Source of the DNA: Minisyncoccota bacterium
GTDB taxonomy: Bacteria > Patescibacteriota > Minisyncoccia > Moranbacterales > GCA-2747515
NCBI GenBank assembly: GCA_937936355.1
Contig: CALDDM010000002.1
Span: 17,156-81,155 of the forward strand
Direction: 5' to 3'
Length of the DNA: 64,000 nucleotides
The position numbers and the translations under genes are program-made. The first letter of the stretch is position 1. The number at the start of each line of letters is the position of its first letter. Below the pieces are notes generated by a model, which searched no databases, was not told the origin of the DNA, and saw only the letters and a program-made list of their open reading frames with translations. Shown piece by piece: positions 15,201-15,606 of this stretch.

Positions 15201-15324
15201 TCTATTTCGATTCTCCTCACTGGTCACCGATTTTTACAAAACAAAAACCGCTTTGTAGAGCGATTCTTGTAGTGTATTTATGATGAGCCAGATAGTACAT
15301 GACGTTAGAACTATTCTTGCTTTA
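15200..15324 (-). repeat. Inter-cassette conserved element copy R4
   Basis: attctcctcactggtcaccgatttttacaaaacaaaaaccgctttgtagagcgattcttgtagtgtatttatgatgagccagatagtacatgacgttagaactattc. Confidence 0.8.
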
Positions 15325-15606
15325 AGCCCTTGAGAATGTGATATGTTGATGCTCACCTAATATCTCTAGTACAACATCCAGAAATTCTTTGCCCAGTGCC
15401 TGATTTGCTTTCTCAAAATTTACCCAATCAATCTCAATCTCCTCTTCGTATTCGTGAATACCAAAACCGCCACGTAATATGTCATTGAAAGCATCTAAGT
15501 TATGCCCAGTCTTCCAATCGAGGTCTTTTGTCAGCACTCGGTCAATCTCATCATAAAATGACTCTTTGTCCAAGATATTGTTCCCGTCTATTTTTATCTT
15601 TTTCAT
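15322..15606 (-). CDS. Cassette gene B: barstar-like protein (barnase-family RNase inhibitor/immunity protein)
   Basis: MKKIKIDGNNILDKESFYDEIDRVL...HNLDAFNDILRGGFG...EIEIDWVNFEK fits the barstar family pattern (N-terminal I.G..I.S...FH..L, NLDAL.D.L); 94 aa. Confidence 0.55.
   Translation of the reverse strand: MKKIKIDGNNILDKESFYDEIDRVLTKDLDWKTGHNLDAFNDILRGGFGIHEYEEEIEIDWVNFEKANQALGKEFLDVVLEILGEHQHITFSRA

Follow-up and report, generated by a model that had tools for sequence, protein, structure and literature searches.

The locus described here lies in a window of 64,000 nucleotides (nt), the whole stretch of DNA that was analysed, from contig CALDDM010000002.1 of a Minisyncoccota bacterium. 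Its subject is a small open reading frame (ORF) of the barstar family (PF01337) at positions 15322..15606 on the minus strand, which is intact over 94 codons, with an ATG start and a TAA stop. The product begins MKKIKIDGNNILDKESFYDEIDRVLTKDLDWKTGHNLDAFNDILRGGFG. This ORF belongs to a cassette array at 13061..16694 (minus strand), in which six single-gene units, ORF241, barstar, ORF96, ORF95, ORF207 and ORF118, share one orientation. The array abuts the 3' end of a tRNA-Gly(GCC) gene (16695..16767, minus strand), the last of a Leu-Val-Phe-Met-Gly tRNA cluster beside rplS, and the 3' end of this tRNA (..GCTCA) forms the anchor, or left arm, of the array. The GC content of the array is 37.9%, while that of the window is 43.8%. 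An earlier note, made from the letters of the sequence, had described a barstar-like gene at these positions. The 94-residue ORF proved to be real and to lie on the minus strand, and the residues of the motif quoted for it are all present, although the spacing given ahead of HNLD was slightly off.

The Pfam Barstar profile PF01337 matches residues 1-86 of the protein with an E-value of 5.1e-12 and a score of 46 bits, the gathering cutoff of this family being 23.4 bits. A search of 5.8 billion proteins found 312 homologues, and PF01337 was present on 120 of the 120 matches listed. One match, on an NCBI contig of 164 kb, is identical in sequence. The best non-self homologues among the matches listed are approximately 60-64% identical, and those with names are annotated as 'barstar family protein' of Chitinophaga, Flavobacterium and Lachnospiraceae. 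NCBIfam holds no family model for this ORF, and a search of the PDB by sequence alone gave no significant match to it; barstar was recovered solely by the fold search. The protein has no signal peptide. Its pI is 4.67 with a net charge of -10, and the corresponding values for barstar are 4.66 and -6. In an alignment of 34 homologues there are 19 invariant positions, D42 included, and the window protein keeps 19 of the 19. Residue D38 is conserved in most of the 34 homologues and replaced by N or S in a few. Residues W31, N41, G46-G49 and W61 are invariant in this alignment, which represents what is here called the GGFG subfamily. An independent assembly of the sequencing run ERR9287626 gives an identical barstar sequence. 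The 94-residue protein is a cytoplasmic and intact member of the barstar family. It agrees with every testable feature by which PF01337 and Imm-Barstar are defined, and it is a new member of a known family.

A structural model of the protein was built with AlphaFold2 from the 34-homologue alignment. The mean predicted local distance difference test score (pLDDT) of the model is 90.4 and the predicted template modelling score (pTM) is 0.80. When the model was compared with the PDB by Foldseek, the 26 best matches were all barstar chains, with template modelling (TM) scores of 0.60-0.73 and a probability of 1.0; they include 1b3s, 1brs, 1bgs, 1a19, 2cx6 and 5f4c. The matches that follow are unrelated AAA+ lid domains with E-values above 0.03. 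The profile match, the fold and the DxxxD motif described below together bear out the earlier description of the protein as barstar-like.

Comparison with the barstar of B. amyloliquefaciens (1BRS, 1BGS, 1A19) shows what is retained and what is changed. Both proteins have about 90 residues and the same alpha/beta fold (TM 0.65-0.73), and the pair of Asp residues on helix 2, the NLDA motif and the acidic pI are common to both. However, the structure-based identity is only 25-29%, the window protein lacks Y29 and W38, and the GGFG segment is specific to its subfamily. The window gene also differs in having no known barnase partner and in being located in a mobile-looking cassette. An hhalign comparison with the B. 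amyloliquefaciens protein gave a probability of 89% and an E-value of 2.3e-6, and it paired GHNLDAFNDILRG of the window protein with GENLDALWDCLTG of barstar. Because of this pairing, D38 and D42 can be regarded as the counterparts of barstar D35 and D39. In the barnase-barstar complex, D39 occupies the phosphate site of the ribonuclease (RNase).

The solo genes annotated as 'ribonuclease inhibitor barstar' in E. coli and Salmonella (2CX6, 5F4C) code for proteins of the same fold, but these are more distant in the structure search (E 1e-3 to 1e-2), and their genes belong to the chromosomal core and are not cassette cargo. They are not known to have an adjacent RNase gene. The Imm-Barstar family of polymorphic toxin systems is defined by the DxxxD motif (barstar D35/D39) and by its linkage to Tox-Barnase and Ntox21 (Zhang et al. 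2012, PMC3482391). The window protein shares with it the Pfam family and the DxxxD motif, and the variable, horizontally exchanged neighbourhoods are alike, but the window locus contains no linked toxin or toxin cassette.

The boundaries of the barstar cassette are set by repeats. A 28-nt repeat, GTTCTAACGTCATGTACTGTCTGGCTCA, here termed core28, is found on the 3' side of five of the six array genes. The window contains five copies, all of them within 13536-15735, where none (0) would be expected by chance. The barstar cassette extends from an arm at its 5' boundary through the ORF to a core28 copy at its 3' boundary. The 5' arm (C arm; 15621..15650, minus strand), AGCCTGGTGAGTGGACGATGTTAGAACTAT, is an imperfect inverted copy of core28. 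The 3' copy of core28 (15284..15311, minus strand) has one mismatch and starts 10 nt (agcaagaata) past the barstar stop codon. The preceding core28 copy, at the 3' end of the ORF241 cassette (15708..15735, minus strand), has the sequence GTTCTAACGTCATGTACTGTCTGGCTCA and forms with the C arm an imperfect palindrome of about 115 nt (15621-15738) with a basal stem of 14 bp. Folded as DNA, this palindrome has an energy of -16.6 kcal/mol (z -2.6), and one of 200 shuffled sequences was as good. Palindromic folding was seen at two of the five core28 sites (z -2.6 and -3.1) and was lacking at the other three (z -0.9, -1.8 and +0.4); the hybrid junctions of core28 with the T module described below fold no better than shuffles.

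Two classes of module follow the core28 copies. The class T module, of about 85 nt, follows the tRNA-Gly and three of the cores and carries an arm, GGTGACYAGTGAGGAGAATCGAAAT, which is like the inverted tRNA-Gly 3' end. The class C module follows the other two cores, and its arm is an imperfect inverted core28 (...GTGAGTGGACGATGTTAGAACTATG). The class T module just past the barstar cassette (15202..15283, minus strand) is a copy of the sequence found after tRNA-Gly, with an A-rich spacer, a terminator hairpin and a T arm (15204-15228, minus strand; GGTGACCAGTGAGGAGAATCGAAAT) resembling the inverted 3' end of that tRNA. Its junction with the core28 ahead of it is of the hybrid core|T kind. A unitig of run ERR9287626 is 100% identical to positions 15259..16697, which confirms the sequence; on either side it terminates within one and the same 30-nt segment of the class T module. 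Therefore ORF241 and the barstar gene are bracketed by an exact direct repeat.

Several simpler identities of the repeat were considered. That core28 is a dif-like Xer site is unsupported, since no internal dyad symmetry is seen by eye. It is not a tRNA fragment, as it has no T-arm and, beyond the shared GCTCA, cannot be aligned with the tRNA-Gly 3' end. A plain tandem duplication of one gene family fails to explain the unrelated cargo (Barstar, SUKH_5, glyoxalase and membrane proteins) of the window and related arrays. In an Rfam search at a permissive threshold, the array and its related loci gave tRNAs only, and neither core28, the arms nor an element of about 130 nt found in related arrays matched any RNA family. 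Core28 is absent from the IMG/VR viral contigs, and there is no sign of a phage vector.

The search for a partner toxin covered the cassette neighbours (241, 96, 95, 207 and 118 residues), the next genes and essentially every window ORF of at least 90 residues, about 56 proteins, which were scanned with Pfam. No ribonuclease (PF00545) or other toxin domain was found among these ORFs of the 64-kb window. A tblastn search of the window with barnase, binase and RNase Sa gave chance matches only, with E-values of at least 0.5. The remaining window genes are of housekeeping type (NusA, RNase Y, ClpP, GyrA, PNPase, FtsH and others), together with a type-IV-secretion-like cluster. No recognisable gene for a barnase-family or BECR RNase, such as would mark a barnase-barstar pair, adjoins the barstar gene. 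The absence of an adjacent barnase-family toxin, as stated in the earlier note, extends in these searches from the neighbours to the whole window. PADLOC, applied to ten proteins, gave a single, weak match (CARF3--CARF, E 0.0033), which fell on an ORF outside the cassettes (10941-11291); the barstar ORF and the remaining cassette proteins had no match.

The same solitary condition is met with in other organisms. In nine genomic contexts of barstar homologues from different lineages there is no recognised toxin gene, and the subfamily is therefore usually solo. Several of these contexts are runs of small immunity-type genes. The neighbours include SUFU and DUF2196 in Chitinophaga, DMP19 on another contig, and two Barstar paralogs with DUF6985 in Flavobacterium. 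A barstar homologue of 160 residues was observed on several metagenome contigs (L022-L024) between rplT and a MazE/PIN pair, rimP and nusA; this is another solo copy, placed among translation genes and adjoining a toxin-antitoxin pair.

A scan of public genomes and metagenomes for core28 identified two metagenome-assembled genomes (MAGs) of 'Candidatus Pacebacteria' (phylum Minisyncoccota) and three metagenome contigs. The tRNA-Gly anchor is common to four related loci, and the synteny of rplS and the five tRNAs is found in three of these. The only genomes sharing the array repeat are the two Pacebacteria MAGs, with the same rplS and five-tRNA synteny, in agreement with the earlier assignment of the organism to the Candidate Phyla Radiation (CPR). 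The cargo at the syntenic site differs in the related MAGs and the metagenome contigs, and the repeats that bound it are the same. With the core28 copies that flank the barstar gene, this places the gene inside a variable cassette array, as had been proposed. In related locus L009 an immunity gene of the SUKH_5/SMI1-KNR4 family (E 7e-31) directly adjoins tRNA-Gly. The cargo of L010 includes a glyoxalase, an FAD oxidoreductase and an IS481-like transposase, and other related arrays carry members of the signal-anchor family described below and membrane proteins.

The repeats are better conserved than the proteins around them. The flanking housekeeping proteins are 56-64% identical between the window and the related MAGs, while core28 is identical at 26-28 of 28 positions between genomes and the class T module averages 83% over ten copies from four genomes. 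This difference suggests either that the repeats are under strong functional constraint or that lineages exchange cassettes. Inside the L009 and L014 arrays, the 3' end of tRNA-Gly recurs in partial copies. In addition, at L012:5026-5049 (minus strand), a core28 copy with a class-C-like module was observed away from tRNA-Gly, between genes for a membrane protein and a pentapeptide-repeat protein near prfB-ftsE-ftsX. Because of this copy, the site type is not strictly confined to the tRNA-Gly array.

The junctions of the arrays are of matched (tRNA|T, core28|C) and hybrid (tRNA|C, core28|T) types, and the SUKH cassette of L009 is flanked by exactly tRNA|C and core28|T. Judged from their sequences, the matched and hybrid arms look like the products of recombination between attB and attP sites. 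A circle with a core28|C site, integrating into a tRNA|T site, would leave tRNA|C and core28|T as attL and attR. The barstar cassette (core28|C ... core28|T) could represent a circle of the same type inserted into a prior core28|T junction between ORF241 and ORF96. Repeated integration at tRNA-Gly would fit the copies of the tRNA 3' end inside the L009 and L014 arrays. The hybrid junctions imply that the crossover would take place between the two arms, near their shared ...GCTCA end.

The cassette products that were scanned contain no recombinase domain; several small ORFs of L010, L011 and L014 were outside the scan. A single recombinase was seen in the window, a tyrosine recombinase of the Xer family (21822..22838, plus strand), which has 338 residues and an N-terminal extension of about 35 residues. 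It matches PF00589 with an E-value of 1.5e-45. The archaeal XerA/'integron integrase' model NF040815 gives 234 bits, over its cutoff of 220, and this is the only NCBIfam cutoff of its kind passed; those of bacterial XerC and XerD are not reached, the XerD model giving 243 bits under a cutoff of 330. The scores against TIGR02249 (135 bits, cutoff 265) and PRK15417 (81, cutoff 435) are low, and the best matches are XerD, XerC and XerA. The gene is located about 5 kb from the array, past the five tRNAs, rplS, a gene for a 395-residue protein, a DsbA-like gene and an M23 peptidase gene. The Xer-family enzyme is only a candidate for the activity that would act on the array.

These observations incline us, with guarded confidence, to the reading that the ORF is a horizontally acquired orphan immunity gene, coding a barstar-type RNase inhibitor within a tRNA-Gly cassette array and directed against the toxins of other cells. 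The gene was probably acquired horizontally, as judged from its sequence relations, because its best non-self homologue is about 64% identical, its named relatives are Bacteroidota and Lachnospiraceae, and its own GC content, 37.9%, is below the 43.8% of the window. The 94-residue protein would bind a barnase-like (BECR-fold) ribonuclease one-to-one, with D38 and D42 on helix 2 plugging the RNase active site. The cassette would have been inserted by site-specific recombination into the tRNA-Gly(GCC)-anchored array of a Pacebacteria-like CPR genome, and its product may shield the cytoplasm from RNase toxins delivered or secreted by competitors or by the host. The CPR, or Patescibacteria, have tiny genomes and are attached to host cells. 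Actinomycetota have recently been found to fend off Patescibacteria with an Esx-secreted effector (PMC13622651), and Zhang et al. 2012 (PMC3482391) name the type VII secretion system as one of the ways in which Tox-Barnase is delivered. By analogy the host might be the source of the toxin for this episymbiont, which is speculative. A swappable cassette that carries an immunity gene would testify directly, at the level of the genome, to the exposure of these episymbionts to protein toxins and to their horizontal gain of countermeasures.

Several points weigh against this reading. The search for a toxin spanned 64 kb of the contig, which measures at least 164 kb, and the same genome may contain an unlinked cognate RNase. 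There is no obvious Shine-Dalgarno sequence upstream of the barstar ATG and no strong promoter match directly upstream. The GGFG segment after helix 2 is invariant in the subfamily, N41 replaces barstar W38, and Y29 is not conserved; because of these changes from the classical barstar residues the target may not be an enzyme of barnase type. ORF241 holds the classical toxin-before-immunity position and has no usable fold model. Only one of the six window cassettes has a recognisable immunity gene; the other five code for secreted or membrane proteins, for which few relatives or none could be detected. Finally, the recombination model is drawn from sequence patterns at a handful of loci, and the candidate recombinase is not tied to the array.

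The alternative that survives best is one of cognate self-immunity. In this case the bacterium would secrete its own barnase-like RNase, encoded elsewhere in the genome, for example for scavenging host or environmental RNA, and the barstar would protect the producer. CPR bacteria depend on salvaged nucleotides, and the genes for an inhibitor and its RNase need not adjoin. The intact barstar family features and inhibitor motif are what such a role would require, and the 64 kb visible are only part of the 164-kb contig. However, no RNase toxin domain occurs in the window, and the gene is localized in a variable low-GC cassette rather than in the core genome. The subfamily is also solo in the nine other contexts, and the related MAGs hold other cargo at this site. 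This alternative is rather unlikely.

It might also be supposed that the barstar gene is a passenger, that is, a recently captured cassette which is silent or drifting and has no current function. The terminator-like structure in the site upstream of the gene would agree with this, as would the lack of a clear ribosome-binding site or strong promoter match directly upstream. But the ORF is of full length, all 19 family-invariant residues are kept, and the independent assembly of ERR9287626 is identical, which makes a decaying passenger improbable. A further alternative, a barstar-fold protein with a different target, either a non-barnase enzyme or a regulatory role unrelated to toxins, is still less probable. 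The invariant W31, N41, G46-G49 and W61, unlike classical barstar, and the loss of conservation at Y29 and W38 would suit it, and there is no barnase neighbour in the nine contexts; yet the DxxxD motif that contacts the RNase active site and the acidic charge are both kept, and several members of the subfamily are found among known immunity families.

The remaining alternative concerns ORF241 (15766..16491, minus strand), the upstream cassette gene, which has no assigned function. It has no Pfam match and no homologue among 5.8 billion proteins; among 1.84 billion representatives it has one relative, 32% identical, of 224 residues with a lipoprotein-like N-terminus. Its single-sequence AlphaFold2 model has a pLDDT of 37 and is unusable. 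An in-frame upstream extension of ORF241 encodes a signal anchor (MKNNIDSNFAIAILALVAAC...), and this is all that it shares with ORF207, ORF118 and proteins of related arrays. The anchor ATG at 16583 (atgaaaaaataaaaaatcat, 16561-16583, minus strand) is out of frame and lies beside an A run. One extra A would restore M-K-K-I-K-N-H-I-D-S-N-F..., and the independent unitig L001 has an A run of identical length. The out-of-frame start could reflect a pseudogene, a sequencing error or slippage-based phase variation. ORF241 is unlikely to be the cognate toxin of the barstar, because its only homologue is lipoprotein-like, its anchor is shared with genes not followed by barstar, and its start is out of frame.

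That ORF241 is a novel surface or secreted toxin, with the MKNNIDSNF signal anchor for trafficking and the barstar as its immunity protein, is the least probable of the alternatives: the toxin-then-immunity order on the same strand at a distance of 159 nt, the polymorphic-toxin logic of a conserved N-terminal anchor with variable bodies, and the lack of a usable fold model are set against a complete core28|C-arm site between the genes, which makes them separate cassettes, the frameshifted start, the absence of a Pfam toxin match, and the finding that no relative of ORF241 adjoins any barstar homologue and that the other anchor-family genes (ORF207, ORF118 and the L009 gene of 219 residues) do not precede a barstar gene.

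The signal-anchor family itself was observed to have a conserved N-terminus of about 35 residues (MKNNIDSNFAIAILALVAAC...) and an upstream promoter-like/terminator module, while the bodies of the proteins are unrelated or very divergent. It is found at 13061-14262 and 15766-16560 of the window (minus strand), at L009:1802-2461 and at L010:4093-4740, and has 14 members in the 5.8-billion-protein search. The architecture resembles that of variable surface proteins or polymorphic effectors.

If the barstar gene is read as an orphan immunity gene acquired with its cassette, the nature of the array must still be considered, and here known systems offer partial parallels. In integrons and clusters of attC sites lacking integrases (CALINs), single-gene co-oriented cassettes each carry a conserved site, as in the window array. 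At two of the window sites there is an imperfect palindrome, about 85-115 nt long and with AAC...GTT inverse cores, and the cargo of related arrays (glyoxalase and immunity genes) is typical of integrons. For a canonical attC after each cassette the picture is mixed: by eye the R boxes agree with the consensus in 6 of 7 positions, but three of the five core28 sites do not fold as palindromes. Integron crossover at R' leaves each attC self-complementary. Unlike integrons, however, the window contains no IntI, the majority of junctions combine two unlike arms, the array has its start at the 3' end of a tRNA gene and not at attI, and some of its cassettes bring their own promoter-like region. A canonical integron or CALIN is rejected, since IntI is absent in the window and the hybrid-arm junctions are incompatible with crossover at R'.

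In the recombinase-associated acquired interbacterial defence (rAID-1) clusters of Bacteroidales, orphan immunity genes form low-GC arrays that have a XerD-like recombinase and intergenic repeats 'reminiscent of integrons', and the rAID arrays of gut Bacteroidales protect against incoming toxins (Ross et al., bioRxiv 10.1101/471110). Co-oriented small genes, orphan immunity, low GC and repeats are shared with the window array. However, rAID-1 begins with an adjacent XerD-like gene, while the Xer-like gene of the window is about 5 kb off, past housekeeping genes; and rAID-1 is dominated by immunity genes, while the window array is tRNA-anchored and its cargo consists mostly of secreted and membrane proteins. 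Insertion at a tRNA 3' end and duplicated tRNA-end repeats, seen as the L009 and L014 copies, are likewise features of tRNA-targeted elements and islands. The window units differ from these in their length of 0.4-0.9 kb, in the lack of an integrase and in the replacement of most of the tRNA-end direct repeat by the unrelated core28.

A polymorphic toxin/immunity island would hold a full-length toxin, or C-terminal toxin cassettes, beside several immunity families; in the window no toxin domain was found and one cassette of six has a recognised immunity gene, SUKH_5 occurring at the same site but in another genome. By its defining features the locus is not a barnase-barstar pair, a polymorphic-toxin island, an integron or a rAID cluster. 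The earlier suggestion of a toxin/immunity island is sustained as far as the orphan immunity gene goes, but not in the sense of a classical polymorphic-toxin locus, with no toxin or toxin cassette visible. Its related remark, that the array has the flavour of a conflict system, finds some basis in the barstar and in SUKH_5 at the same site in a related MAG, but is weakened by the single immunity gene among six window cassettes. By analogy, the array appears to act most like a cassette store of integron or rAID type anchored on a tRNA gene.

A wider proposal can be put forward only tentatively, and we hold it to be somewhat doubtful as a whole. The array may represent a previously undescribed gene-capture platform of Pacebacteria-like CPR bacteria, with a tRNA-Gly(GCC) anchor, a 28-nt core, inverted-arm sites and a recombinase acting in trans, possibly Xer, which would shuffle single-gene cassettes between lineages and, for the defence of these obligate episymbionts, stockpile orphan immunity genes (Barstar, SUKH_5) beside variable surface proteins against the toxins of hosts or competitors. 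If true, the platform would be the episymbiont counterpart of acquired interbacterial defence islands. In the literature, a search that left out most subscription journals found no report of an integron or cassette array in CPR bacteria, nor of barstar in CPR bacteria or in integrons. The protein itself adds little, as solo barstar-family genes are common and the mechanism proposed for it is a textbook one; the cassette platform is the more novel part. The tRNA-Gly-anchored array has near-identical site-like repeats across genomes that are otherwise about 60% identical in protein, and it is a practical point of entry for studying how genes move horizontally in a phylum of which most members are uncultured.

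Among the other cassette genes of the window, ORF96 (14893..15183, minus strand), directly downstream of the barstar cassette, codes for a small protein that is predicted to be secreted and matches no family. At 15200..15172 a site resembling a promoter agrees in 11 of 12 positions. A look-up of the other cassette proteins in public assemblies found only unitigs of the same run, with identical gene order.

Further observations were made in the related arrays. An element of about 130 nt without an ORF occurs in three copies, at L009:~1590-1700 (minus strand) and at L014:4885-5015 and 6665-6820 (plus strand). Its edges are two copies of the tRNA-Gly 3' end, one inverted and near-perfect (TGAGCGGAATCGAAC, or TGAACGGAATCGAAC in the second of the L014 copies) and the other direct (GATTCCCTCACTCGCTCA), and it contains internal hairpins (e.g. 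CGGGAAAACGTAGTTTGCCCG). The element may represent a structured RNA of small size, or else an 'empty' cassette reduced to a minimum. At L010:6728-7603 (plus strand) the IS481-like rve transposase gene adjoins a core28 copy. In the second Pacebacteria MAG, at L011:468-1181 (plus strand), an HNH homing endonuclease (HNH_repeat and HNH, two ORFs) is located beside tRNA-Gly on the opposite strand. A stand-alone GIY-YIG nuclease gene of 84-85 residues is found between tRNA-Met and tRNA-Gly at L009:3276-3530 (minus strand) and L014:4446-4703 (plus strand) and is absent from the window. In L014, moreover, tRNA-Phe and tRNA-Met are separated by an insertion of additional genes, about 2.4 kb in length. 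In general, the tRNA cluster is a hot spot of insertion.

Just past the distal end of the window array, after a strong terminator, there is a DUF2200 gene (12464-12847, minus strand; E 6e-40) with a GC content of 36.5%. It has no core28 and may be an older cassette or an unrelated insertion. The cluster at 55807-63315 (plus strand) codes for a VirB4/TraG-like ATPase and a protein of the PrgI family, has on its flanks the genes of large proteins without Pfam match (751, 467, 226 and 186 residues), and resembles the type-IV-secretion or conjugation-like system described for Patescibacteria.

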